Shown piece by piece: positions 3,430 through 60,335 of a DNA stretch of 64,000 nt. Source of the DNA: Candidatus Latescibacterota bacterium (GTDB lineage: Bacteria; Latescibacterota; UBA2968; GCA-2709665); the NCBI GenBank assembly GCA_965219455.1, contig OZ244744.1, forward strand, positions 4,544,001 through 4,608,000. Direction: 5' to 3'. Position 1 is the first letter of the stretch, and each line of letters starts with the position of its first letter. The notes under the pieces are model-generated. The model had not been told where the DNA came from, did no database searches, and saw only the letters and a program-made list of their open reading frames with translations. Made by a program: the position numbers and the translations under genes.

Positions 3430-3661
3430 AAGCGCTTGACCGGGCATGCGGAAAAACCAATATTAACAAGTGGATATCGATACATATGTTACGACACAAA
3501 AGCTTGAACGCGGGACGGACCTGCGATATATCCAGGTGTTGCTGGGGCATGCAAGCCCAAAAACCACACAGATCTATACTCGGGTGACGAATCGGGATCT
3601 CGCGAAAATCCAGAGCCCGCTGGATGCATTGATGGAAGAAAGGGAGGCAGTTTTTGATTAG
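3430..3661 (+). pseudogene. Tyrosine recombinase C-terminal remnant, copy 1
   Basis: ALDRACGKTNINKWISIHMLRH, then a frameshift/deletion, then [28 protein letters not shown] (box II and catalytic Tyr). Confidence 0.85.
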
Positions 3662-3795
3662 ATACGATGCCACCATAGGAAGCATTCCTGAACATGTTCG
3701 GGCTACAAGCTTCAAAGTGGGATGTTCCCGAACGTTCGCAGATCTTCGGATCAGGTACGCATTACCGTAACTGTTCGGTAATCCCGTAGTTAGCA
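3662..3795 (+). other. attI-like recombination element, copy 1 (crossover G|TT at 3789)
   Basis: Conserved in four copies. Hairpin tacg-cattaccg..cggtaat-ccgta precedes GTTAGCAGCC, the exact reverse complement of GGCTGCTAAC (6736) at the next attC. Confidence 0.8.
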
Positions 3796-4157
3796 GCCAT
3801 GCCAGTCGAATCCAATGATTGCGAATGACCTCCGTGCCGCTCTGGTTGCGGCGTTACCTGCACTCCTGCTTCCATCCTCATGACAGCGGGGAGGGTCGTT
3901 GAGGTCCTCGGGTTAAACGTGGGAGCGCTGGCAACCAGAGCGTTTTTCGTCCATTCTCTGACTTTGCTCCTGTTGCTCGGGACGATCCTGAGTTGACGGC
4001 GACAGCCGAGCTTGGGCTGCTGCTGGCCGGGTTCAGCCTGATATTTCTCGGCTTCTCGATCATGATGAGCGGCCGTGAATCATGGAAGGCCGTTCTCTGC
4101 GTTCTCCGCGGGCTCTGCGGGTAAAAAAAACCGGTACAGATTTTGGAGGTCATCGCT

Positions 4158-6847: not shown

Positions 6848-6946
6848 GCATTGATTTCCATACGTAGTTAGACAGCACGAGACAGCCTGTCCGCACTTTT
6901 ACAGTCCAATTGCGACGCAATTCTTACAGCAACACAAGAGGATATA

Positions 6947-7867
6947 ATGAGTATTGCTACTGAACCCTGCCCTGGGCAGCTACGCCACCACTCTTACGCC
7001 GTGGTGCGCGGTTTGTTCGACGCAGCGACGACAAAACGGCTGCGCGAGATCTGTGAGCGAGTGCTGGAACAGTGGCGGCGCGCTCCTCGCTGTGACAATC
7101 CACCGGTGGGGCCCCAGGCCAATTACATGAGGCACCTGAACGACCCGGAATATCACCGCGATCACCCCGACGATCTCGCCTTTCTGCTCAATGCCATGGG
7201 GTCGCCCCAAGTTGTCGAATCGCTGAGCGCAGCCTTGGATGAAGAATTCCTCTTCGCCTTGAGCAGTCTCTACTGTAATCCGACCGGAGAAAGCCAGGAC
7301 GGATTTTGGCACAAGGACAAGATCGGTGCAGAAGCAGACGTATCCCGGAGACCGGAGACCGGAGCCGGGTTGCAGATGCAAATCGCATTGGTCCCTACCG
7401 ACGATCTCGAATTGGTGCCGGGGTCTCACCTGCGTGACTACTCCCCCGAAGAGCACGCGATCTGCGTCGCCGATGATGGGATCCACAACCGCTCGAACGA
7501 TATGCCTGGCGCCGTTCGTCTCCACCAGGAACCCGGTGACGCGGTGCTGTTTACCCAGTTGTGCATTCATCGGGGCCGCTATCACACCGACAAGCTCAGG
7601 CGCTCGTTGATGATCTCGGTAAAAAAACGGGCCGCCGCAGAGTTCACGATGCGCCAGCGGGGGCTGAACTACGCCAGTGACCAGCCATGGTTTTTGCTGC
7701 CGCAATACTTCGATGGCGTCAGTGAGGATGCGCGAGCGTTCTTCCAGGAATTCGTCGGCTTCTACGCCCCGCATTGGCGCGCCCGGCTGACGGAGGTGTT
7801 GAAGTACTCGAGTCTGGTACAAAGCCTGGTGGAAGCCGGCGAGCCGTACCCGTTTTTTGGTGAATGA
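6947..7867 (+). CDS. Phytanoyl-CoA dioxygenase (PhyH) family 2OG-Fe(II) oxygenase, copy 1
   Basis: WHKD, LELVPGSH, PGDAVLF....IHRG motifs. Confidence 0.85.
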   Translation: MSIATEPCPGQLRHHSYAVVRGLFDAATTKRLREICERVLEQWRRAPRCDNPPVGPQANYMRHLNDPEYHRDHPDDLAFLLNAMGSPQVVESLSAALDEEFLFALSSLYCNPTGESQDGFWHKDKIGAEADVSRRPETGAGLQMQIALVPTDDLELVPGSHLRDYSPEEHAICVADDGIHNRSNDMPGAVRLHQEPGDAVLFTQLCIHRGRYHTDKLRRSLMISVKKRAAAEFTMRQRGLNYASDQPWFLLPQYFDGVSEDARAFFQEFVGFYAPHWRARLTEVLKYSSLVQSLVEAGEPYPFFGE

Positions 7868-8047: not shown

Positions 8048-8143
8048 GAAAGCGGCACAAAGACAGAGCGGCCATCCCTGGCCGCCAAAAGCAAAGAATC
8101 GCTGATACACCTCGATCCAGCATTTCACCTGAGGTGTAAACCG

Positions 8144-12417: not shown

Positions 12418-12747
12418 AACGAATGTCAGCGCCGTTTTCGTTCTTGACAGATCCACCGGTTTCTATTTGAACACGATAACAAAGAACTTCCGACAGACGT
12501 CTAGCTTGTACACAGATAGCCAATCTCTATTACAGAATCCGGGCTCAGGGTTGACCAGTTGCAAGGGAATTCGATGGTTCCCGATCCTTCAATTGTAGTG
12601 ATTGCTTTGCTCATTCTTGCTCCCGTTTTTGTGGGGATTCTCTTTAAGCTCTTCAGCCCCCGAATGCGCTCAGTTACCGATGCGCGAATGCTTATGGCAG
12701 ATGAACAACCGGCCTTCCCTACGTGCCCATATAGAGTGAGACAACCC

Positions 12748-13167
12748 AGGGGGTATCGCGCGAAAACGCGAAAAGCGTACCTTGGTCACGTCAGACGATT
12801 TGCCAATTATTGCGGCAAGGCACCTCGATCTTTTGGGGAGATGGAGGTCCGAAATTACGTGTATCACCTCCTTGAAACGGGAGCCTCGCACAGTTACGTC
12901 AATCAGTGCGTAAGTGCATTGAAATTCCTGTTCCTTCGAGTGTTGAAAGATCAGCATCCTCTTGAAAACCTGCCCCGTCCGAAAAAAGAGCACAAATGCG
13001 ACACACCTGCTTGAACGCGGGACCGACCTGCGATATATCCAGGTGTTCCTGGGCATGCAAGCCCAAAAACCACACAGATCTATGCTCGGGTGACGAATCG
13101 GGATCTCGCGAAAATCCAGAGCCCGCTGGATGCATTGATGGATGAAAGGGAGGCAGTTTTTGATTAG
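12748..13167 (+). pseudogene. Tyrosine recombinase remnant, copy 2 (N-terminal SAM-like domain fused to C-terminus, catalytic core deleted)
   Basis: RGYRAKTRKAYLGHVRRF...YVNQCVSALKFLF...LPRPKKEHK joined at ~12996 to [15 protein letters not shown]. Confidence 0.85.
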
Positions 13168-13301
13168 AGACGATGCTACCATAGGAAGCATTCCTGAACA
13201 TGTTCGGGCTACAAGCTTCAGCGTGGAATGTTCCCGAACGTTCGGAGATCCTCAGATCTGGTACGCATTAACGTACATGTTCGCCAATGCCGTAGTTATG
13301 C
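13168..13301 (+). other. attI-like element, copy 2 (G|TT at 13295)
   Basis: Homologous to copy 1; GTTATGCG complements CGCATAAC at 14001. Confidence 0.75.
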
Positions 13302-13365
13302 GCCAGCACGTGAGTACGACACTCATCAAGCCACCCGTTAATAAGCCACCCGTTAATCGACAACG

Positions 13366-14007
13366 TTGATCCAGATAGGCGACTATTCCTTGGACGATGT
13401 TCTGAAGAAGGCAGACGAACTACGGAAGGAAACTGATGACCTGATCCATCGAAGAGGGTTGGGTCAGATTCTTAGCTCTTTCGGGAGGGTGTGGTATAGA
13501 GGCAGCTACGAACTGAATACAATGGCATGGGCCGACCTAGACATCCACATAGTGATGGAACCTGATCCCTGGTCAGTTGATGAGTTCTTCAAGTTGGGGG
13601 CCCGAATTGCGTCACTTGAGGGGGTGATTTCGATGAAGTTCGATGATTGTGCTCATCATCCTCGGGACGTGCTTCCGGAGGGCCTCTATTGGGGTACACG
13701 AATGGCCAGGGGAAAGAGCGAAATTCCCTGGAAGATAGATTTATGGTCCACAAGATCTGAACTTCTTGAAAGGGACAAGCTTCGGATTGCGAGAGTAAAA
13801 GAGCGAATGACTGAGTCACATCGAAGGAAGATCCTCAAAATCAAACACTCGCTCCTGACACCTGAGGGGAGAACGCCGGACTCGACCGGAAGACATATTT
13901 ACGATGCCATTCTTTTTAAAGGTCTTGAAACTCTTGGGGAAGTTAAAGACTACCTCCGAGCCAAAGGCATAAAGGACTTGCAGGGAAAACACGTGCCGGA
14001 CGCATAA
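13366..14007 (+). CDS. Nucleotidyltransferase-fold hypothetical protein
   Basis: GSY.L.TM...DLDI and WKIDLW motifs; stop codon lies in the attC R'' box. Confidence 0.65.
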   Translation: MIQIGDYSLDDVLKKADELRKETDDLIHRRGLGQILSSFGRVWYRGSYELNTMAWADLDIHIVMEPDPWSVDEFFKLGARIASLEGVISMKFDDCAHHPRDVLPEGLYWGTRMARGKSEIPWKIDLWSTRSELLERDKLRIARVKERMTESHRRKILKIKHSLLTPEGRTPDSTGRHIYDAILFKGLETLGEVKDYLRAKGIKDLQGKHVPDA

Positions 14008-14087
14008 CACGACAGGCTGCGGCTCCGGGGCATTCGCCCCTTCGCTCAACCCGCTGCGCGGGTTCGCAGCCTGCGAGAACGTTAACA
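14001..14087 (+). repeat. attC-like site
   Basis: CGCATAAC...caggctgcg/cgcagcctg...G|TTAACA at 14081. Confidence 0.88.
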
Positions 14088-14276
14088 GAAAGCACGCGCC
14101 AAAATCAGAACCAGCGGCCATCCTGGCCGCCAAGAAAACCTTTGATATGCTTCTGTTGCCTGTTGGATTTTTCTACAGCGAATTGGATATGTGGAGTTTC
14201 TGCGACCACGACTGAGATATTCCGCGATTCTTCCGTATGGGCAATAGTTAGCCACCAACCGCGTTGGGAACAGACC

Positions 14277-15449
14277 ATGGGCTCAAATCGGCTCCAGCCA
14301 ACAACCCGGAAGACCTTCGTCAGCGACCGACAAGATGGCCGCTTTATCGACACGGCGGGCTTCATACACGCGTTCATCAAATCCCACCGACCAAAGCTCG
14401 CGTTCGATCCGGATATGGATGCCCGCGAATTTCCTGCCTGGCGCGAACGGCTGCGCAAGAAGGTGCTCGAGTTGATGGCGTTTCCCGAAGTGGTCCGTCA
14501 ACCAGCGCCTAAACGCGTCGGCGTCGAGCAGCGTGCCGGATACCAACTCCAGCGTTGGGAGATATATCCCGAACTGCACTGCGTCGTACCCTTTCTGATG
14601 CTGGTCCCGGATGGCACGAGCGACCAGTCGCCCGCTCCGGCGGTCCTGTGTTTCCCGGGGTACAGCGGCAGCAAAGAAGGAATGGCCGGTGAGCGGGAAT
14701 TGAACGACCGCAAACTCGACTGGAGTGAAGAGAAGTGGCGCGACAACTGCATCGCCTTGCACTTCGTGCGCCAAGGAATGATCGCCGTGGCGGTTGACAA
14801 TCCCGCTCGTGCCGAAGCGGACAGTGCCCTTCGGGATCTTTCGGGAGTTTCGCTGTGCATGCTGTGGACAGGGCGCAACTATCTCGGCATTTCGGTCTTC
14901 CAGAAGACCCAGATCCTGCAGTGGCTGGCCCAATCGAGCATGGTAGACTCGAAGCGCATCGCAACATGTGGTCTATCGCTGGGTTCCGATCCGGCCGATA
15001 TCGTCGGGCTGCTCAATCCGGATCTGGTCGGAGCCGTCATCCATAACGATTTCCTGTGCGACTGGCGCGAACGAACGATTGCCCAGAATGCCTACGGCTC
15101 GACCCCTCACCACGTGGTTCCCGGAATGTATCGTTGGTTTGACGCTCCGGACATTCAAGCGGCACTGGCCCCGCGGCCTCTGCTCTACACAGAAGGTGGT
15201 CGCGCCCCTCATATCAGCAGGATCCGGGCCGCCTATAAAATGGCGGGGGCTCAGGACAACGTGAAGGTCTATCACTACAAGAAGTATGAGACCGCAGACG
15301 CTCGCCTCTACGACGACCAGCCGATCCCAGAAGGGCTGGCGGATGAAGAGTACTTCCTCTATGCCAATGTCGATGTGGCGGAACACCGCTTTCACCCCGA
15401 ACATGCTGTTCCTTGGCTGACGGAAGTTCTTATGCCGAAGACGGACTGA
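14277..15449 (+). CDS. Alpha/beta hydrolase (esterase-like)
   Basis: PAVLCFPG, RIATCGLSLG nucleophile elbow, APRPLL motifs. Confidence 0.8.
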   Translation: MGSNRLQPTTRKTFVSDRQDGRFIDTAGFIHAFIKSHRPKLAFDPDMDAREFPAWRERLRKKVLELMAFPEVVRQPAPKRVGVEQRAGYQLQRWEIYPELHCVVPFLMLVPDGTSDQSPAPAVLCFPGYSGSKEGMAGERELNDRKLDWSEEKWRDNCIALHFVRQGMIAVAVDNPARAEADSALRDLSGVSLCMLWTGRNYLGISVFQKTQILQWLAQSSMVDSKRIATCGLSLGSDPADIVGLLNPDLVGAVIHNDFLCDWRERTIAQNAYGSTPHHVVPGMYRWFDAPDIQAALAPRPLLYTEGGRAPHISRIRAAYKMAGAQDNVKVYHYKKYETADARLYDDQPIPEGLADEEYFLYANVDVAEHRFHPEHAVPWLTEVLMPKTD

Positions 15450-15466
15450 GAGCGGACAAAGTAGAA

Positions 15467-15521
15467 TGGCTAACAGGGCTTGCACCCGACTCGCTTCGCT
15501 CGTGGGAAGCCCTCGCTATAA
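15467..15521 (+). repeat. Short inner attC of a nested cassette
   Basis: TGGCTAAC complements GTTAGCCA at 14247; agggctt/aagccct arms; right end G|CT. Confidence 0.65.
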
Positions 15522-15692
15522 TTGAAGAGAGAAGTCAGAGAGACGATGTAGTTTGCGTTATTTTCGGGGACTGATTTCAGAACTGGCGTAAGGCAAATGG
15601 CAACATGTTTTGTTCAAGAGCTTGATGTAAAAACCAGAAAAGCACCCCGATGCGTGCCTCCTGGCAGGCCCACCCCACCCCGGCGCGTGCCA

Positions 15693-15821
15693 TCTGTTAA
15701 CAGCGCACTCCCGGCTCGCTTCGCTCGACCAAAATGGCCGTGACTGATTCTCTGACTGATTGTAAAACCACTGATTCCTTCCCCAGGCACGGCCACTTCG
15801 GGAGCGCGCGAACCGTTAAAT
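15693..15821 (+). repeat. attC-like site
   Basis: TCTGTTAAC complements GTTAACAGA (14081); GTT at 15815; related to the site at 49937. Confidence 0.8.
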
Positions 15822-15958
15822 GCAAGCAGCGCAGGAATCTTGAAAACCCAAACCGTGTAAGAATCGCGATGGCGGTAGATGTCCGCGCTACGCGAGTTCA
15901 CGTTCGGGCATCGTTACAGGTTCGCTCCGGAGGGATTGCGAGGGTCACAGATACAGGC

Positions 15959-17145: not shown

Positions 17146-18365
17146 ATGCGATCGGATGTTAGGTTTCCGATGACACAGAGGAGAGATGTGAAGGCGTACA
17201 AGGTAGGGCTACCCGGGCTGTTCCTCTTCTTATTTGCGCTCGCCGGCAGTTCCGAATCGATAAAGGAAGAAGGAGGAGCCTTGATGCTTAACGCGTGGGT
17301 TGTCTCGACCCTCAAGGCCGAAGGTCTAGCCCCGGAGCTGATTGCTGACCTAACGGCCAGAATAAGAAACCAGGACTATAAGAATATTCACAGCCTTTTG
17401 ATCGCTCGAAATGGCAACCTGGTTTATGAGGAGTACTTTCCTGGTGCCGATGGAAGGAGAGGAGTCGTCGAATTCGATAAGGAAACTCTGCACGATACAA
17501 GGTCTGTCTCGAAGAGCATCGCATCATCGTTGATAGGCATCGCAATTGACCAAGGATATATCGGGTCAGTTGATGAACCCATGTACCAATATTTTCCGGA
17601 CTACACGAACCACCTGACCGAGCAGAAGAAACGCGTAACTTTGGAACACCTGCTGTCAATGACGGCGGGGTTCAAATGGGATCAATCCGGTTCACATCAG
17701 TCCGAACTCGGATCGGCCAACACGGAAGCGCAAATGGAAAACAGCTTTGATTTCATCGACTACGTGCTGTCCGCCGATATGTCAGCCACAGCTTTGATTT
17801 CATCGACTACGTGCTGTCCGCCGATATGTCAGAGGAGGGAGAGCGTTTCAATTACAATAGCGGCTGCGCCATTCTCCTCGCTGGTGTGATCAGGAACGTA
17901 TCGGGAATGCACGCAGATAAGTTCGCTGACAAGTATCTCTTTGGGCCATTGGGCATCGATCGTAATGAATGGTGGCGAACAAAGACCGGTTTACCACAGA
18001 CACATGCGGGTCTGCGGCTTCGCCCTCGGGATATGGCCAAGATCGGACAGCTTTATCTCAACAATGGGAGATGGAAAGGTCTGCAAATTCTACCCGCATC
18101 GTGGGTTGAGGAGTCCATAAAGCCACACTTCGTAAACGATCGATATGGATACGCCTGGTGGCTCGACCGCTTTCCTTTCCACGAGGGATCCGTCAAGAGT
18201 TACGTCGCTGAGGGCAACGGAGGACAATTCATTTTTGTAATCCCAGACTTGGATTTAGTGGTCGTCTTTACAGGCGGCAACTACGGCTCCTCCACTGCGA
18301 ACCAGGCTTTCAAAATCGTAATCAATCACGTATTGAAAGCTGTTAGCCAAGAAACGAGTGAGTAG
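17146..18365 (+). pseudogene. Serine hydrolase (class C beta-lactamase-like), frameshifted
   Basis: SVSKS (SxxK), LLSMTAG, FNYNSG, GNGGQ; split by a 45-bp tandem duplication (17741-17785 and 17788-17832). Confidence 0.85.
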
Positions 18366-21350: not shown

Positions 21351-21455
21351 GGCGCATAACACGCCCACTTGCGCTGCGGCGCATACGCGCCTTGGCCTTC
21401 GGCAACCCACCTTCGCTACGCTTCGGTGGGTTCGCAAGTGGCGAGAACGATATAT
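21351..21455 (+). repeat. attC-like site followed by a G|AT core
   Basis: GGCGCATAAC complements GTTATGCGCC (20437); right core GATATATG at 21449. Confidence 0.85.
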
Positions 21456-22391: not shown

Positions 22392-22483
22392 CATATATCA
22401 CATCCATTTACGCTACGGGGCATTCGCCCCTTGGCCTTCGGCACCCCGCATACGCGGGGTCGTAAATGGTGAGAACGTTAAAC
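22392..22483 (+). repeat. attC-like site with ATC-type R'' box
   Basis: CATATATC complements GATATATG (21449); ccatttacg/cgtaaatgg arms; GTT at 22477. Confidence 0.85.
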
Positions 22484-23124: not shown

Positions 23125-24805
23125 CCCCAATTATTCACAAAAAAGGTAGTTTCCTTACCCAAGTCATTGTATTATATTATGGTTAGGTGAATAACCATAC
23201 AACAATGAACTGGGAGGAAACTACCGTGAAAGTTCAAGATAATCAACTCGCACTTCCTTTCGCAAGTGTTTCGGGCAAGCCGGTGGAAGCCGTCTTCGAT
23301 GGCGGTGTGCTCACCAGCGATATGGGGTTGATGCTGCTGCGAGAGGTGGCGTCCAAAATCGGCATCCTGTCTCGGATCGTCGAGGCGTTAACGGACCGTC
23401 GGCATCCAAGTTATGTGGATCACACGATGATGGACCTGATCAGCCAGCGTGTCTTTCAGATCGCGTGCGCGTATGAAGATGCGAACGATTGCAATGCGTT
23501 GCGCGAGGACCCTGCGTTCAAGGCGGCCTGTGATCGGTTGCCGATATCAGGGGCGCCGTTGGCCAGCCAACCCACGATGAGTCGATTGGAAAACGGGATT
23601 CGTCGCAGGGACTTATATCGTATTGCCGAGGCCCTTGTGGACGGATTTATCGCGTCCTACAAAAGGCCTCCCGACGCGGTCGTTCTGGATATCGATGACA
23701 CCGATGACGAGGTTCACGGCAAGCAACAGTTGTCGTTGTTCAATGGCTATTACGATGAACGCTGTTACTGTCCCTTGCACATTTATGAAGGCCGGACAGG
23801 AAGACTGATCACGACGCTGCTGCGTCCGGGCGCCCGTCCTACCGGCAAACAGATTGTCAGCATTCTTAAGCGACTGGTGAAAATCCTTCGTAAGGCGTGG
23901 CCGGACGTGCGTATCTTTTTGCGTGGCGATGGCCATTTTTCCTGTCCTGAGGTCCACGACTTTTGCGACGAGCAAGACGTGTATTTTGTGCTGGGACAGA
24001 CGGGCAATGCCAGGCTTGCACAACGGGGACACGCGTTGATCGAGCAGGCAAAGGCCCAGTATCGGGAAACCGGACAGCCCTTGCAGTTATTTACCTGTTT
24101 CGCTTACCAGGCAGATACTTGGGCCGTGCCAAGGCGCATCATCTACAAAGCTGAAATCACCGCTTCCGGACAAGCCAATACACGCTTTGTCGTCACCAAC
24201 CTGAAAAGTAGCCAGCCCTCATTCATCTACAAAACCGTCTATTGCGCGCGCGGCAGGATGGAAAACTTCATCAAGAATCACAAAACCTTCCTCCATTCCG
24301 ATCGTACCTCCTGCCACACCTTCGAAGCCAATCACTTCCGTCTCTTCCTGCATAGTGCCGCTTATGTCTTGATGCATACCCTTACCGAAAAAGGACTCCG
24401 GGCTACCCAATGGACGCACGCCCAGTTTAATACCATTCAGAATCGCATTCTCAAAGTCGCCGGGCGAGTGTCCGAACTCAAGACCAAAATCAAACTCCAT
24501 TTGCCAACATCATTTCCCTTGAAACACCTTTATGACACCATCCTCTGTAATTTGGCAAAGGCATATCCATAACGCCGTTTCGCGCCGGCCGATCCATCCC
24601 TTTCTCATCGCCACAAAGTAAGACCAAGGCATCCGTCTGTCCTTTCCACACCCTAAATAAAGAACTCGACACCCCTCAATGCTGACGGCACATCCAATAT
24701 TACTCATCATCGCGTCACCAACACGTCATTCGAATATTTCCCCTCCTCCAGAACACTTTCTGCTTCCACAGACACTGCTCTATTCATTTTCATGAATTAA
24801 TCGGG
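23125..24805 (+). mobile_element. IS1380-family insertion sequence
   Basis: TTAG target duplication (23121-23124, 24806-24809); imperfect TIRs CCCCAATTATTCA / CCCGATTAATTCA. Confidence 0.88.
23187..24572 (+). CDS. IS1380-family DDE transposase
   Basis: FDGG.LTSD.G, LASQPT.SRLEN, LDIDDTDD..HG.QQ, LRGDGHF, Y..RG.MEN.IK motifs. Confidence 0.93.
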   Translation: MNNHTTMNWEETTVKVQDNQLALPFASVSGKPVEAVFDGGVLTSDMGLMLLREVASKIGILSRIVEALTDRRHPSYVDHTMMDLISQRVFQIACAYEDANDCNALREDPAFKAACDRLPISGAPLASQPTMSRLENGIRRRDLYRIAEALVDGFIASYKRPPDAVVLDIDDTDDEVHGKQQLSLFNGYYDERCYCPLHIYEGRTGRLITTLLRPGARPTGKQIVSILKRLVKILRKAWPDVRIFLRGDGHFSCPEVHDFCDEQDVYFVLGQTGNARLAQRGHALIEQAKAQYRETGQPLQLFTCFAYQADTWAVPRRIIYKAEITASGQANTRFVVTNLKSSQPSFIYKTVYCARGRMENFIKNHKTFLHSDRTSCHTFEANHFRLFLHSAAYVLMHTLTEKGLRATQWTHAQFNTIQNRILKVAGRVSELKTKIKLHLPTSFPLKHLYDTILCNLAKAYP

Positions 24806-32254: not shown

Positions 32255-32345
32255 CATATATCACAGCAATTCCCACTGCGCGCCATTCGGCGCTTGGCCA
32301 AACGGCACAGCCCTTCGGGCTGTCGGGAATTGTCTAACGTTAACA
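32255..32345 (+). repeat. attC-like site with ATC-type R'' box
   Basis: CATATATC...caattccc/gggaattg...GTT at 32339. Confidence 0.75.
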
Positions 32346-32550
32346 GAAAGCACGCGCCAAAGTCAAAACAGGCGGCCGTCCCGGCCGCCAGGAAAATCTT
32401 TGAACCACTTCTCTTGCTTGATGGATTTGTTCTACAGCGAATGAGCTATACGGAGTTTTTTCGACCAGATTTTTCCGTAAAGGCAAGAGTTGGCGGCGAG
32501 AAGACCAATATGAGTGCACAATAAGTGAAAGGCTACCCGGTGACGGTCAA

Positions 32551-33426
32551 ATGAAGCTACACATTCTCGGTAACGGTGGTCCGCGTCCCAGCCGTATGGG
32601 TGAACGCTACGGGTGTTCCTGCATTCTCGAGATCGGTGACGATCGTATCATGGTTGATTGCGGCCCCGGCACCACCTACAAGATGGCACGCATGGGAATG
32701 AGTCCTACACAGGTGAATTCGGTTTTCCTAACTCACCATCATTCGGATCATATCGTTGATTTCCCGTGTTTTGCCTTGCTACGGTTCGATCTAGACCCCG
32801 GCGATCTTCCTCCCCTCAGAGTCTTTGGTCCGCCTCCGACTGTCGAATTCGTCGATCGCCTTTTTGGCAAGGACGGCGCCTTCCTTTCCGACGTCGTTGC
32901 GCGTCGAGAACACCACATCAGCCACCACGGGCACGTGGGGAGAGGCGGAACGCTTCCCCGTCCGGGCATGAAGGTCGATGTATCCGACATCAGTTCGGGA
33001 GCGGTTGTCGAGGGGAAAGGTTGGAAGGCGACGGCTGTACAGGTTCCTCATGTCGAGCCTTACCTAACCGAGCTAGCGTACCGGATCGATACGGATAGCG
33101 GCAGCGTACTCTTCCTGTGCGATGCAGCGGACTGTCCCGAACTGAGGCCATTGGCCAGGGGGGTTGATACATTCGTTACGGGGCTCTCTATGCGCAATTT
33201 CAAGGAGAATGACGAAGATGCTTCGCATCCGATCCGGGGCGTCAGCGCGGACATATCAGAGGTCGTTGACATCGCTAATGAAGCTGGAATATCGAGGGTC
33301 GTGGTCATCCACTGCGGTTCGCCGCGCAGTGAGGACATCGTCGGCAGGCTCCGCCGAGGCTACCATGGGAATGGATATAGCGGTTGTATCGTGCGTCCTG
33401 ACGAGCTTACGACTGTTGAGATATAG
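32551..33426 (+). CDS. Metallo-beta-lactamase-fold hydrolase (RNase Z-like)
   Basis: VDCGPG and FLTHHHSDH motifs. Confidence 0.85.
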   Translation: MKLHILGNGGPRPSRMGERYGCSCILEIGDDRIMVDCGPGTTYKMARMGMSPTQVNSVFLTHHHSDHIVDFPCFALLRFDLDPGDLPPLRVFGPPPTVEFVDRLFGKDGAFLSDVVARREHHISHHGHVGRGGTLPRPGMKVDVSDISSGAVVEGKGWKATAVQVPHVEPYLTELAYRIDTDSGSVLFLCDAADCPELRPLARGVDTFVTGLSMRNFKENDEDASHPIRGVSADISEVVDIANEAGISRVVVIHCGSPRSEDIVGRLRRGYHGNGYSGCIVRPDELTTVEI

Positions 33427-33688
33427 GTTGTGTAAGAGCGAGGAATCGGCCTTAACCCGGCACGGATAATTGATCTTCGACATTCTACCGTATGTTGGGG
33501 ATTTCTATGGAGCAGCTGTGGCGCCTGGCGCAAGAAACCCAACACCCCCACCCAGAAAATCGCGCACAAGAAACAATAACCACTCCATCCTGATTTCTTC
33601 ACAGCGAATGGATTTACCTCTCGATCTCATTGTAAGCTCTGCGAGCTCACGCGAAGATCAGGGAGTAATTCAATACCAGGAGAAACCA

Positions 33689-35146: not shown

Positions 35147-35267
35147 AGCCATTTGGGGGTTCAACAATCATCCACGGCGAATAAACTGCATCAAGTTTTT
35201 CGGCTACGAATGGAATATGCCGAACTTTCTACGCAGAATCACAAGTCAGGCCGTACGGAGGTCCACT

Positions 35268-36395
35268 ATGAAGTGGGAACTGCTGCATCCGGACCAGGAG
35301 CAAGCCGAGGATGTACCCTGTAAGCGGGCGGCCTTCGGCGGGATGTTGAGCTACAATGGATGCGTCTACCTGTTCGGGGGGATAAAAGTGATGTACGGCC
35401 GGCCGAAAGGGCCTGGAGATCTTTCCGTCCAGGGCTCATTGAACGACCTGTGGCGCTACGACCCGGGTCGAGGCCGGTGGACGCGGTTGGAAGACCACGA
35501 TGGGCGCATCGGGTTCAGTCCGTCCGATACCAGACCGTGTACTCGGAAGCTCACGACCTGGCTGCCCGTGAACGGCAGGCTCTATCTTTTTGGAGGGTCC
35601 TCGGTGCGGGGCCCCGGCAAAGGGGCGATCAAGCTGAACGATCTCTGGGCCTACGATCCGAAGACAGCCTCGTGGGAGCTGATAGAGCCCGACGACGGGC
35701 GCGCATCAGGAATAACGGCGGATGGGCATCGTCCCGCCGGGTCGGGCGGGATGGGGGCGGCCGTTCTGGGTGATTACCTGTACCTGATGGGGGGACATGG
35801 CGCGATGACGCACGCACAGCTGTGGACCTACAAGGCGCCGGCCGGGAAATGGGAGCACCTGGGGCCTGCGTCGAATGGGCGCAACGGTTGGCCGCCGAAA
35901 CGATACTGTCCCGTGCTGGCCGGCTGGAACGGCAGGCTCTACCTGTGGGGCGGTCGGGACAGTCAGGGTCGAGCGCCGGAGTTCTACAACGATCTGTGGG
36001 AATACGATCCCGACGGAGGCGCCTGGACCTGCATTCAGGAGAACCGGGCAGATGACGTTGCACGGCCTTCCCCTCGGTACGGGCTGGGATACGCTGTGAT
36101 CGGAGATCACCTGTATCTGTTCGGAGGATTTGCAGGAGGGGAAGGGGAGCACCCCCAGCTGAACGATCTGTGGCAGTACGATCTTCGTGCCGGCCGGTGG
36201 GACTGTCTATATCCACACAACGGTGCGGAGGATTGCTCTGCTGGCGCCGAACGTCCCGGTGTCAGGCGAATCCCCGTTATGACAGTGGGGGGCGAGTCCG
36301 TCTATCTCTTCGGGGGGCTGGACCTGGCTACCGGGCCGCACGGGGACGGGCCGCTGGCGGCGTACAACGATTTCTGGCGCGGAACACCGGCCTGA
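35268..36395 (+). CDS. Kelch-repeat protein, copy 1
   Basis: Repeated LYLFGG...NDLW.YD....W units. Confidence 0.9.
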   Translation: MKWELLHPDQEQAEDVPCKRAAFGGMLSYNGCVYLFGGIKVMYGRPKGPGDLSVQGSLNDLWRYDPGRGRWTRLEDHDGRIGFSPSDTRPCTRKLTTWLPVNGRLYLFGGSSVRGPGKGAIKLNDLWAYDPKTASWELIEPDDGRASGITADGHRPAGSGGMGAAVLGDYLYLMGGHGAMTHAQLWTYKAPAGKWEHLGPASNGRNGWPPKRYCPVLAGWNGRLYLWGGRDSQGRAPEFYNDLWEYDPDGGAWTCIQENRADDVARPSPRYGLGYAVIGDHLYLFGGFAGGEGEHPQLNDLWQYDLRAGRWDCLYPHNGAEDCSAGAERPGVRRIPVMTVGGESVYLFGGLDLATGPHGDGPLAAYNDFWRGTPA

Positions 36396-39312: not shown

Positions 39313-39567
39313 GAGAGGTCGGTACAGACCGCGTTTGACCGGGCTTGCGAGAGAGCGAAAATTGTCCAGCGGATACCGACGCTACGGCATTCCTTTGCGA
39401 CACACCTGCTTGAACGCGGGACGGACCTGCGATATATCCAGGTGTTGCTCGGGCACGTAAGACCAAAGACCACACAGATCTATACTCGGGTGACGAATGG
39501 GGATCTCGCGAAAATCCAGAGCCCGCTGGATGCATTGATGGAAGAAAGGGAGGCAGTTTTTGATTAG
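39313..39567 (+). pseudogene. Tyrosine recombinase C-terminal remnant, copy 3
   Basis: [17 protein letters not shown]...[37 protein letters not shown]. Confidence 0.88.
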
Positions 39568-39697
39568 AGACCCACCATAGGAAGCATTCCTGAACATGTT
39601 CGGGCTACAAGCTTCAGCGTGGAATGTTCCCGAACGTTCGCAGATCTTCGGATCAGGTACGCATTACCGTAACTGTTCGGTAATACCGTAGTTAGCA
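39568..39697 (+). other. attI-like element, copy 3 (G|TT at 39691)
   Basis: GTTAGCAGAA complements TTCTGCTAAC at 44147. Confidence 0.8.
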
Positions 39698-39827
39698 GAA
39701 ATCGCCCCCACCACCCCCAGAAGAACCGTGATTGCGTGCAAAAATAGCCCCACCCTCCCCACCATCAACACTCGTTCCTATACTTGGATTTATGCGACAG
39801 CGGAGAAATCCCGAGTCAGATCTTCCC

Positions 39828-44928: not shown

Positions 44929-45019
44929 TGCAGCTAACACGTCGGGCTGCGGCTCCGGCCCTTTCGGGCCTCCGCAGCAACCTGCTGGCGCAGGTTCGCA
45001 GCCCGCGGGAACGTTATAA
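44929..45019 (+). repeat. attC-like site
   Basis: TGCAGCTAAC approximates GTTATCTGCA (44295); GTT at 45013. Confidence 0.85.
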
Positions 45020-46058: not shown

Positions 46059-46169
46059 GCAATTAATAGAGCATTGATTTCCATACGTAGTTAGACAGCA
46101 CGAGACAGCCTGTCCGCACTTTTACAGTCCAATTGCGACGCAATTCTTACAGCAACACAAGAGGATATA

Positions 46170-47090
46170 ATGAGTATTGCTACTGAACCCTGCCCTGGGC
46201 AGCTACGCCACCACTCTTACGCCGTGGTGCGCGGTTTGTTCGACGCAGCGACGACAAAACGGCTGCGCGAGATCTGTGAGCGAGTGCTGGAACAGTGGCG
46301 GCGCGCTCCTCGCTGTGACAATCCACCGGTGGGGCCCCAGGCCAATTACATGAGGCACCTGAACGACCCGGAATATCACCGCGATCACCCCGACGATCTC
46401 GCCTTTCTGCTCAATGCCATGGGGTCGCCCCAAGTTGTCGAATCGCTGAGCGCAGCCTTGGATGAAGAATTCCTCTTCGCCTTGAGCAGTCTCTACTGTA
46501 ATCCGACCGGAGAAAGCCAGGACGGATTTTGGCACAAGGACAAGATCGGTGCAGAAGCAGACGTATCCCGGAGACCGGAGACCGGAGCCGGGTTGCAGAT
46601 GCAAATCGCATTGGTCCCTACCGACGATCTCGAATTGGTGCCGGGGTCTCACCTGCGTGACTACTCCCCCGAAGAGCACGCGATCTGCGTCGCCGATGAT
46701 GGGATCCACAACCGCTCGAACGATATGCCTGGCGCCGTTCGTCTCCACCAGGAACCCGGTGACGCGGTGCTGTTTACCCAGTTGTGCATTCATCGGGGCC
46801 GCTATCACACCGACAAGCTCAGGCGCTCGTTGATGATCTCGGTAAAAAAACGGGCCGCCGCAGAGTTCACGATGCGCCAGCGGGGGCTGAACTACGCCAG
46901 TGACCAGCCATGGTTTTTGCTGCCGCAATACTTCGATGGCGTCAGTGAGGATGCGCGAGCGTTCTTCCAGGAATTCGTCGGCTTCTACGCCCCGCATTGG
47001 CGCGCCCGGCTGACGGAGGTGTTGAAGTACTCGAGTCTGGTACAAAGCCTGGTGGAAGCCGGCGAGCCGTACCCGTTTTTTGGTGAATGA
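46170..47090 (+). CDS. PhyH-family dioxygenase, copy 2
   Basis: Identical translation to 6947-7867. Confidence 0.85.
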   Translation: MSIATEPCPGQLRHHSYAVVRGLFDAATTKRLREICERVLEQWRRAPRCDNPPVGPQANYMRHLNDPEYHRDHPDDLAFLLNAMGSPQVVESLSAALDEEFLFALSSLYCNPTGESQDGFWHKDKIGAEADVSRRPETGAGLQMQIALVPTDDLELVPGSHLRDYSPEEHAICVADDGIHNRSNDMPGAVRLHQEPGDAVLFTQLCIHRGRYHTDKLRRSLMISVKKRAAAEFTMRQRGLNYASDQPWFLLPQYFDGVSEDARAFFQEFVGFYAPHWRARLTEVLKYSSLVQSLVEAGEPYPFFGE

Positions 47091-47270: not shown

Positions 47271-47447
47271 GAAAGCGGCGCAAGTGTTCCCAGCCACATT
47301 ACCCCAAAAAATCGCGCACAAAAGGCAACAACCACCTTATTTTGAAGTCTTCCACGGCGAATAAACTGTATCAAGTTTTTCGGCTACGAATGGAATATGC
47401 CGAACTTTCTCCGCAGAATCACAAGTCAGGCCGTGCGGAGGTCCACT

Positions 47448-48575
47448 ATGAAGTGGGAACTGCTGCATCCGGACCAGGAGCAAGCCGAGGATGTACCCTG
47501 TAGGCGGGCGGCCTTCGGCGGGATGTTGAGCTACAATGGATGCGTCTACCTGTTCGGGGGGATAAAAGTGATGTACGGCCGGCCGAAAGGGCCTGGAGAT
47601 CTTTCCGTCCAGGGCTCATTGAACGACCTGTGGCGCTACGACCCGGATCGAGGCCGGTGGACGCGGTTGGAAGACCACGATGGGCGCATCGGGTTCAGAC
47701 CGTCCGATACCAGACCGTGTACCCGGAAGCTCACGACCTGGCTGCCCGTGAACGGCAGGCTTTATCTTTTTGGCGGGTCCTCAGTGCGGGGCCCCGGCAA
47801 GAGGGAGATCAAGCTGAACGATCTCTGGGCCTACGATCCGAAGACAGCCTCGTGGGAGCTGTTAGAGCCCGACGACGGGCGGGCATCAGGAATAACGGCG
47901 GATGGGCATCGTCCCGCCGGTTCGGGCGGGATGGGGGCGGCCGTTCTGGGTGATTACCTGTATCTGATGGGGGGACATGGCGCGATGACGCACGCACAGC
48001 TGTGGACCTACAAGGCGCCGGCCGGGAAATGGGAGCACCTGGGGCCTGCATCGAATGGACGCAACGGTTGGCCGCCGAAACGATACTGTCCCGTGCTGGC
48101 CGGCTGGAACGGCAGGCTCTACCTGTGGGGCGGTCGGGACAGTCAGGGTCGAGCGCCGGAGTTCTACAACGATCTGTGGGAATACGATCCCGACGGAGGC
48201 GCCTGGACCTGCATTCAGGAGAACCGGTCGGATGATGTTGCACGGCCTTCCCCTCGGTACGGGCTGGGATACGCTGTGATCGGAGATCACCTGTATCTGT
48301 TCGGAGGATTTGCAGGAGGGGAAGGGGAGCACCCCCAGCTGAACGATCTGTGGCAGTACGATCTTCGTGCCGGCCGGTGGGACTGTCTATATCCACACAA
48401 CGGTGCGGAGGATTACTCTGCTGGCGCCGAACGTCCCGGTGTCAGGCGAATCCCCGTTATGACAGTGGGGGGCGAGTCCGTCTATCTCTTCGGGGGGCTG
48501 GATCTGGCTACCGGGCCGCACGGGGACGGGCCGCTGGCGGCGTACAACGATTTCTGGCACGGAACACCGGCCTGA
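47448..48575 (+). CDS. Kelch-repeat protein, copy 2
   Basis: Near-identical to 35268-36395. Confidence 0.9.
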   Translation: MKWELLHPDQEQAEDVPCRRAAFGGMLSYNGCVYLFGGIKVMYGRPKGPGDLSVQGSLNDLWRYDPDRGRWTRLEDHDGRIGFRPSDTRPCTRKLTTWLPVNGRLYLFGGSSVRGPGKREIKLNDLWAYDPKTASWELLEPDDGRASGITADGHRPAGSGGMGAAVLGDYLYLMGGHGAMTHAQLWTYKAPAGKWEHLGPASNGRNGWPPKRYCPVLAGWNGRLYLWGGRDSQGRAPEFYNDLWEYDPDGGAWTCIQENRSDDVARPSPRYGLGYAVIGDHLYLFGGFAGGEGEHPQLNDLWQYDLRAGRWDCLYPHNGAEDYSAGAERPGVRRIPVMTVGGESVYLFGGLDLATGPHGDGPLAAYNDFWHGTPA

Positions 48576-59461: not shown

Positions 59462-59527
59462 GATCTCGCAAGAACCCAAAGGCACCTTGATGTAATAATG
59501 AATGAGAATGAAGCAGAATGCGATTAA
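59462..59527 (+). pseudogene. Tyrosine recombinase extreme C-terminus, diverged copy 4
   Basis: DLARTQRHLDVIMNENEAECD* aligns with [21 protein letters not shown] of copies 1 and 3. Confidence 0.6.
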
Positions 59528-59659
59528 GGACGGTAGCTGATTAATTGCATTCCTGAACATCTTCGGCTACAAGCTCCAACGTAACATGCTTTCGAACGTT
59601 CGCAGATCCTCCGACCAGATACGAATTACCGTTGCTGTTTTGTAATACCGTAGTTATAG
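59528..59659 (+). other. attI-like element, copy 4 (G|TT at 59653)
   Basis: gcattcctgaacat..gctacaagct..cgaacgttcgcagatc..taccgta GTTATAG; complements CTATAAC at 60370. Confidence 0.75.
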
Positions 59660-59669
59660 GAAATGCCAA

Positions 59670-60335
59670 ATGACCCCAAGCGACGATGCTTCTTACGGCG
59701 ATTCCTCGGTGTGGGATAGCCGCTTCAAACGCGAAGGTGATTTGGATTGGGGAGGGTTCTGGATAGATCCTTTTGTGGACACTTTAGCCGAGAGCAATTG
59801 CAGGAAGGTTCTGGATCTGGGATGTGGGTCGGGGAACGACGTACGTCGTCTTGCAAATTTAAACCTCCAAGTCACGGGTCTGGATTTTTCGAAAATAGCG
59901 CTAGACATCGCCCGTTCGCAGCGGAATCCGAGAGCCGGTTTTGTGAGGGCTGATATGGCTAGGGGGCTTCCGTTTCTCAAACGGTGCTTCGATGCCGTCT
60001 TTTCGAACGTGGCGCTTCACATGTTCGACGACATGATGACGAGGGCTGTCATTCAGGAGGTAAAGCGCATTCTCCGCCCCTCAGGGATTTTTGTCTTTCA
60101 CGTGAACTCAGTTGATGACCGTGAGCTACGAGCACGCCGGAGGCAGGTATCCGAGAAACTGGGGCCGAACCGGGTGCGTGAAGCGGATGGCCAGACAGTT
60201 CACTTTTTCTCTCAATCCGAGCTTGAAGGTCACTTTCAAGAGTGGACGCATCTTGAGATCGAGCACCTATTCGTACCTGATGGAATAACAGGAAAGCCTT
60301 TCAAAGCCGTCTGGCGAGGATGTGCGCGGAATTGA
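59670..60335 (+). CDS. Class I SAM-dependent methyltransferase
   Basis: VLDLGCGSG and GLDFS motifs. Confidence 0.9.
   Translation: MTPSDDASYGDSSVWDSRFKREGDLDWGGFWIDPFVDTLAESNCRKVLDLGCGSGNDVRRLANLNLQVTGLDFSKIALDIARSQRNPRAGFVRADMARGLPFLKRCFDAVFSNVALHMFDDMMTRAVIQEVKRILRPSGIFVFHVNSVDDRELRARRRQVSEKLGPNRVREADGQTVHFFSQSELEGHFQEWTHLEIEHLFVPDGITGKPFKAVWRGCARN

Follow-up and report, generated by a model that had tools for sequence, protein, structure and literature searches.

A hydrolase gene cassette probably nested in a non-coding carrier cassette of a Latescibacterota integron array

Results

A hydrolase gene between two non-coding segments

We analyzed a stretch of 64,000 nucleotides (nt) from a Candidatus Latescibacterota bacterium (GenBank assembly GCA_965219455.1, contig OZ244744.1, positions 4,544,001 to 4,608,000 of the forward strand), hereafter the window, with a focus on the unit at 14082-15815, in which a hydrolase gene lies between two non-coding segments flanked by attC sites. 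The window is a large, sedentary chromosomal integron array on the + strand. To locate its attC sites we used R1, a covariance model built from 25 hand-collected attCs, all of them long; it replaced a strict R''/R' regular-expression scan and an arm-complementarity scan, which had failed or given noisy results. R1 returned 35 matches in the window at E values up to 1, of which 32 are credible + strand attC sites. The genes between them are mixed (methyltransferases, NUDIX proteins, APH-type kinases, PIN/HicB proteins, kelch proteins and others). The unit belongs to an integron array in that attCs, four attI copies and intI fragments are all present. Its features are as follows, with arrows marking junctions.

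13998-14088, + strand: upstream canonical attC (R1 94.4 bits, E 3.7e-20; bottom-strand fold -27 kcal/mol, z -4.92)
14081-14100, + strand: start of the outer cassette, GTTAACAGAAAGCACGCGCC, pairing with 15682-15701
14082-14247, + strand: leader, the 5' non-coding part of the carrier, ending in ...TTCCGTATGGGCAATAG
14242-14254, + strand: internal attachment site, left junction CAATAG↓TTAGCCA, crossover between 14247 and 14248
14248-15515, + strand: inner cassette, 1268 nt, its start matching its own R'' at 8/8 positions
14277-15449, + strand: hydrolase gene, 390 amino acids (aa) plus stop (PF12715 Abhydrolase_7, E 1.8e-101)
15467-15515, + strand: short inner attC, 49 nt, with R'' TGGCTAAC, stem AGGGCTT paired with AAGCCCT, and final G
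15516-15690, + strand: trailer, the 3' non-coding part of the carrier, the only copy in this genome
15691-15822, + strand: outer attC with a long variable loop (R1 21.4 bits, E 0.0058)

The ends of the outer unit match

The R' G of the upstream attC is position 14081, which puts the crossover between 14081 and 14082. A cassette should start with the reverse complement of the R'' of its own attC, and we tested this rule on the 31 consecutive attC pairs of the window. Self pairs agreed at 5/5 variable box bases in 14 of 31 cases and at 4 or more of the 5 in 21 of 31; the corresponding counts among 993 non-self pairs were 26 and 131. Pairs that failed the rule mostly span several genes, and a cassette boundary is probably missing between their members. 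The complementarity often runs about 12 nt past the classical 7-nt box, for example in the pairs 10392 and 11246, 25972 and 27135, and 54903 and 55804.

The outer unit agreed at 5/5 box bases and 10/12 extension bases, the latter value being found in only 1 of the 993 non-self pairs. When 14081-14100 was aligned with the reverse complement of 15682-15701, 18 of 20 positions matched, a level reached nowhere else in the 5.84-Mb genome, where one other place matches at 17. The matching ends reported in an earlier sequence-only reading of this DNA (the original prediction) are thus real, and by the array's own rule the outer unit is a single cassette. Its attC has R'' CTGTTAAC at 15694-15701 and its R' G at 15815, and it folds at z -2.96 in situ and z -7.31 as a circle form with the leader start. 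This circle form reaches -46.5 kcal/mol, versus -28.3 kcal/mol with the trailer start, the partner that a tandem arrangement would supply. Leader and trailer contain no conserved open reading frame (ORF); the frames present are short, a minus-strand one of 58 aa (14082-14258) and a plus-strand one of 48 aa (15597-15743). No second copy of the trailer, searched as 15516-15697, exists in this genome; the congener G003 matches its first 80 nt at 100% identity, and G020, a relative from another genus, matches 15597-15700 at 78%.

Run X5, from another study, has a contig (record 11, 4036 nt) that covers 13900-15900 with 4 differences, none of them at 15516, so the arrangement is not an assembly artifact. 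Chance similarity could draw on the facts that short hairpin patterns are common and that the inner hairpin in situ has a z of only -0.5, but contigs from two other studies span the unit, the same structure occurs in G003 and in the metagenome contig L149, and the 18/20 match is found at a single genome site; chance or a chimeric assembly is accordingly very improbable. In run X16, one contig joint connects 14103 to 15675 (side 25). In an empty carrier 14247 would instead be joined to 15516, so this joint is not one; it fits another cassette with the same ends, like the ordinary gene cassette of G016, which has the same two ends (16/20) and no leader body.

The hydrolase gene is a cassette within the unit

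At 14247-14254, GTTAGCCA is the exact complement of the R'' TGGCTAAC at 15467-15474, and such an 8-mer arose in only 44 of 20,000 shuffles of 14082-14276. The complementarity and the short attC ending G↓CT at 15515 had both been described in the original prediction, and both hold exactly. The site escapes R1, a model built from long attCs only. In situ its R' reads G↓CTATAA, the hairpin ending at G15515 and being followed by CT, and there it folds weakly (z -0.5, no better than shuffles) because its R' partner is missing. Joined to 14248 onward, it gains an R box, an unpaired base and an inner stem and reaches -17.1 kcal/mol (z -3.8; 2 of 300 shuffles were as low); joined to 14082 onward, it reaches only -10.4 kcal/mol. 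The loop core CTCGCTTCGCTCG occurs in an attC context only at the inner and outer attC. Both ends-match tests thus support the proposal that the hydrolase gene is its own cassette inside a unit whose ends belong together.

The in-situ inner R' lacks the conserved GTT, and G↓CT is read at 15515-15517 in the window as well as in runs X5 and X16. With the same cargo, G003 and L149 have G↓TTATAATTG at the right junction, which makes the G↓CT of the window a point change. The GTT triplet of attC is conserved and a change to GCT should disable the site, so the inner attC is probably inactive in the window. The junction foreseen for an empty carrier, ggcaatag↓ctataattg, has to be corrected accordingly to G↓TTATAATTG.

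A hydrolase homologue of 93% identity is present on L264 (G053:C118, about 1500-2680), from another family of the same class. It has no attC, and its start codon overlaps the stop of the upstream gene. The homologue may be a source gene, or it may once have been a cassette and lost its site.

The leader recurs in front of different cargo

The leader has a second copy in the window, and both copies carry a GC hairpin.

14114-14130, + strand: GC hairpin GCGGCC-ATCCT-GGCCGC in the leader, also found at 8068, 32372, 45047 and genome position 2543071
32339-32489, + strand: second leader copy, ending GGCAAGAG↓TTGGCGG
32490-33536, + strand: MBL-fold gene block travelling with the second leader, attC lost

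Positions 14081-14247 and 32339-32489 share 124 of 150 aligned bases (82.7%) with one 17-nt gap, and both leaders end in ..TTCCGTA..GGCAA.AG↓TT. The genes behind them are unrelated (PF12715 Abhydrolase_7 versus an MBL-fold gene), in agreement with what had been claimed for the copy near 32339. A trailer for this second copy did not survive scrutiny, since the alignment is gap-ridden and 662 of 1,000 shuffles score as well. Elsewhere, leader copies of 72-99% identity are present in 7 other loci. Of 61 related genomes, the window's own included, 12 have the leader: besides that genome, 10 of 21 others of the family and, with a weak match, 1 of 39 from three other families of the class (G058).

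The GC hairpin does recur near 8068 and 45047, as predicted, though the pattern alone is common: there are 20 matches genome-wide, and 37 of 100 shuffles contained at least one. Five of the 20, however, have common flanks and lie at the start of a cassette. Those at 8068, 14114, 32372 and 45047 have the form GCGGCC-N5/6-GGCCGC and lie 27-34 nt past an attC R' box; the hairpin module opens these four array cassettes and one elsewhere in the genome. The latter, at genome position 2543071, is outside the window and 2 Mb off, and nearly duplicates the beginning of the cassette at 45013, hairpin included, which hints at a second cassette cluster. Weak copies of the central block of the leader, TTCTACAGCGAAT, with its surroundings, also stand before other cassette genes, at 33590-33615, 47344-47426 and 35171-35244, and the block may be a shared regulatory motif.

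To compare what follows the leader, we assembled 15 loci containing either the leader or its 3' half (two lie in the window; the others are L019-L027, L149, L138, L016 and L010). Leader homology stops at A[GT/GC]G↓TT in all 15, and 9 different continuations follow.

TTAGCCA: hydrolase, in the window and metagenome contig L149
TTAGCCC: 185-nt ORF-less element before the hydrolase cassette, in G003
TTGTGCG: aldo-keto reductase and ADH genes downstream, in G009
TTCGCAG: BNR_2, in G020
TTGGCGG or TTCGCGG: MBL gene, in 6 loci
TTGGGCA: leader continuation, in G021
TTCTGTG: leader continuation, in G018
TTGGCTG: leader continuation, in a second locus of G021
TTAAGAG: leader continuation, in G058

A search with leader and trailer had been proposed as a way of finding other cargo. 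Lack of a consistent breakpoint at the GTT and of empty or alternative forms had been named as the outcome that would tell against the idea; homology always ends at G↓TT and the cargo varies, so this test does not refute it. The right junction can be read in four loci, as G↓CTATAATTG in the window, G↓TTATAATTG in G003 and L149, and G↓TTAAATTGGAAGA in G020. In G020 the leader is followed by a BNR_2 cassette, G↓TTAAATTGGAAGA, a trailer homologous to that of the window and an outer attC, in which the R'' region again reads ..GCCATCTGTTAAC; the carrier ends of this locus match at 16/20. The BNR_2 cargo has its own short attC (start versus R'' 6/7; circle fold z -4.3). Two genera therefore have homologous carriers with unrelated cassettes at one and the same nucleotide, which is the strongest support for nesting.

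Wider scans added little. A degenerate junction pattern found 97 stretches in genome contigs, nearly all of them in unrelated taxa, and only the known Latescibacterota loci were real. At least 119 stretches came from the metagenome junction scan, and a leader profile found L149 among the metagenome matches listed; the other 5 matches of this profile (L056, L064, L107, L125 and L138) came from the genome-contig scan.

G003 carries two inserts in tandem at the site. One is an ORF-less element of about 185 nt that ends AAGG↓TT and has no attC-like fold (L019 3378-3570; L020 4150-4347). It occurs once between leader and hydrolase cassette and once between the MBL gene and another gene, so that the leader is not the only module with this behavior. 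G058 has a leader-like module whose start differs and which lies directly after an attI-like core. A distant attC there is 73% like the outer attC of the window, and its R'' extension has changed along with the leader start (16/18 by eye). That the two changed together ties the leader to the far attC.

The unit can also be read as three tandem neighbors: an ORF-less leader cassette with a non-hairpin 3' site, the hydrolase cassette, and an ORF-less trailer cassette, any change of cargo being a shuffling of neighbors. Such an arrangement would agree with the G↓TT on both sides of the leader in every locus, with its standing after attCs (in G058 right after the attI-like core), with the absence of the trailer from most leader copies and with the like behavior of the ~185-nt G003 module in two contexts, but we consider it unlikely. 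The leader has no attC (z +0.97, no R1 match), its start pairs at 18/20 with the R'' extension of the far attC and with nothing inside the leader, and the trailer start fits the outer R'' at only 2/5 variable bases by eye. The circle forms expected of tandem cassettes also fold much worse, and leader and trailer together flank different cargos in two genera.

Observations at odds with nesting, and the MBL lineage

Several observations weigh against a cassette having been inserted into a carrier. A full carrier around a cargo with its own attC was seen in only 2 loci, and most leader copies lack the trailer. The trailer itself is complete in only two loci and is replaced after 80 nt in G003 and L149. 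The gene behind the leader in G058 has no attC of its own. An empty carrier, looked for with leader and trailer, was not found in the 61 relatives, in 22 genomes of the family or in two DNA runs; none was found among the metagenome matches listed either, contigs being liable to miss rare forms. The original prediction of an ORF-less carrier with an internal site is thus upheld in its recurrent breakpoint and in the G020 carrier with other cargo, and the empty shells it expected were not found. R1 found no attC at the internal site, and the 3' end of the leader (14135-14256) does not fold as one (minimum free energy -7.1 kcal/mol, z +0.97; 171 of 200 shuffles as good); the 3' end of the second leader copy has a z of +0.39. 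Compared with the attI of the array, the internal site gave a local score of 16 against a shuffle mean of 15.7, and 239 of 500 shuffles scored as high; it is not adjacent to intI, and its likeness to attI is limited to TAG↓TTA. No intI passing the TIGR02249 cut-off was found in this genome, which has only broken intI genes.

The MBL lineage adds to these difficulties. The MBL gene is at least 93% identical in 15 relatives, in which the leader is whole, cut at its 5' end or reduced to about 13 nt, and 6 MBL loci have no attC within 1.5 kb. Upstream breakpoints in this lineage are not at G↓TT, nor is G↓TT ever a breakpoint there. The leader of this lineage may be an old resident upstream sequence. 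After its MBL gene, G020 retains an attC-like piece where the window has a deletion. As an attC this piece is ambiguous: its R'' CGCCAAC matches the cargo start, but the arms do not pair.

These facts invite another explanation, that the leader belongs natively to the MBL gene, as an ordinary conserved region of untranslated (5') or regulatory sequence, and reached other genes by duplication or homologous exchange, with its AGTT end marking the start of gene-specific sequence. The 15 relatives with whole, cut or ~13-nt leaders and the 6 loci without an attC speak for it, and so do weaker TTCTACAGCGAAT copies before other genes at ~33600, at ~47350 and in G058. Even so we think it rather improbable, since it explains neither why the bases after the G complement the R'' of the cargo (8/8 in the window, 6/7 in G020) nor why the right junction is again G↓TT followed by a homologous trailer.

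In the window, the block 32335-33536 (leader plus MBL gene) is 95-98.7% identical in 4 other loci, and the start of the MBL unit matches no downstream R'' within 6.5 kb. Relative to G020, an attC-like piece of about 160 nt has been lost at 33525-33536, between two 12-nt direct repeats. This loss fused the MBL unit to the next cassette.

Leader and expression

The original prediction had allowed for a promoter in the leader. We found 0 sigma-70-like sites there, with 0.7 expected, and the sigma-70 pattern may not be the promoter type of this host. The GC hairpin and the A-rich run upstream of it resemble a minus-strand terminator. The contigs from RNA libraries (174 and 192 nt) all lie inside the hydrolase gene (15019-15217), a weak hint that cannot show a transcript start; none covers the leader. 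A consensus fold of the leader has 30 pairs, only 1 of them compensatory, and by eye the divergent copies break the second stem, so we claim no RNA structure. Rfam gave no match in the window or the surrounding region.

The surrounding array

An attI-like sequence occurs four times in the window (3660-3822, 13166-13330, 39562-39720 and 59524-59680). Homology among the copies stops at CCGTAG↓TTA, and each is then followed by a different cassette. Three of the four lie 3' of intI fragments whose orientation is that of the cassettes, and the array appears to combine several integron heads. One fragment, at 12559-13370, is an integron-integrase pseudogene that is frameshifted and lacks 391 bp relative to the copy in G013, a relative with an open, intact intI of 346 aa.

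Some cassettes have the variant core G↓AT instead of G↓TT (R' at 21449, 48935 and 61681; R'' boxes at 22395, 32258 and 62672). Because these cassettes start G↓ATATAT and have ATATATC as their own R'', the variant triplet is inherited with the cassette. The array also contains a DDE transposase gene (23187-24569; PF13701, E 1e-155) and cassettes duplicated at 98-100% identity (6848-7147 and 46071-46370; 35168-35467 and 47348-47647, with PhyH-type and kelch-repeat genes). A gene of PF00144, the serine beta-lactamase family, at 17146-18362 is split into two overlapping ORFs and is probably frameshifted.

Discussion

The ends of the outer unit match, the breakpoint after the leader is shared among loci, and a homologous carrier holds different cargo in another genus. 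On balance we favor, with some reserve, the explanation that the hydrolase cassette was inserted at a recurrent non-attC site within another cassette. Without its insert the carrier would be about 466 nt long, a non-coding leader and trailer followed by a long attC of its own. An integron integrase would have inserted the circular hydrolase cassette by recombining its short attC with the internal G↓TT of such a once-empty carrier (..GGCAATAG↓TTATAATTG..). The left hybrid junction would then combine the G of the carrier with TTAGCCA of the cassette, and the right one ..GCCCTCG of the cassette with TTATAATTG of the carrier. In the lineage of the window the right junction would later have mutated to G↓CT, probably locking the insert in place. 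The internal site would have been used repeatedly, other cargos having entered at the same nucleotide in relatives.

Once inserted, the inner attC would split the carrier into two mobilizable halves. If the inner and outer attC then recombined, the trailer would be excised, and leader, cargo and attC would remain as a composite cassette. Trailer loss by this route would explain why many leader copies have no trailer, and the composite-cassette step fits both the movement of the MBL block as a unit and its start without a matching downstream R''. A bolder possibility, which we put forward tentatively, is that the leader is a portable docking platform: an attI-like entry site borne on a cassette, perhaps with expression signals, that afterwards rides along as the leader of its cargo when the composite cassette moves. 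Through such a platform the integrase could add genes far down a sedentary array, and integrons would possess mobile secondary entry ports in addition to attI.

Insertion at secondary sites is itself already known; what differs here is a conserved target that is reused. According to PMC3518468, secondary sites fit GNT and are used at very low frequency in experiments, and one (GTTAAGT) lies inside a cassette-borne gene. An aadB cassette at a secondary site in RSF1010 is cited in PMC1382264 (its reference B3). The internal site resembles such cases in that the crossover falls at the G↓TT of a core-like heptamer outside an attC hairpin, with an attC as partner. The known cases are rare one-off events at arbitrary places, whereas here the site is conserved, has 9 continuations in 15 loci and has received inserts in tandem in G003.

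PMC1382264 also describes families of non-coding cassettes in Vibrio arrays, conserved and paralogous and suggested to be selfish or promoter bearing, and PMC6557892 reports ORF-less Treponema cassettes with promoter activity. The carrier is likewise short, conserved, paralogous and without an ORF, but the known examples are not described as targets of further insertion. Fused cassettes (PMC4670013), in which loss of an attC joins two cassettes, are composite units whose start mismatches the final attC; the MBL block of the window likewise lost its attC, by the deletion between 12-nt repeats. The nested unit, by contrast, retains both attCs, each matching its own start, which argues for insertion and not fusion.

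The internal site shares with attI a double-strand site without a hairpin, a crossover at G↓TT and the piling up of cassettes behind it; the array attI ends CCGTAG↓TTA and the carrier site CAATAG↓TTA. It differs from attI in lying within a cassette, away from intI. IS1111-attC elements and group IIC-attC introns also land site-specifically in integron arrays, but they target attC and encode a transposase or a reverse transcriptase, whereas the insert here is an ordinary cassette and its target is not an attC. The literature that we searched contained no cassette nested in a carrier cassette and no report joining integron, attC and Latescibacteria.

In textbook integrons, cassettes enter at attI, beside the only strong promoter, and the distal genes of large chromosomal arrays are believed to be largely silent. 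Nested and chimeric cassettes can be detected computationally by asking whether a cassette start matches its own R''. If a conserved non-coding cassette does receive other cassettes repeatedly at one internal nucleotide, there would be a second way into an array and a means of building composite cassettes that share a leader. A concrete function would then be at hand for one or more families of the puzzling ORF-less cassettes.

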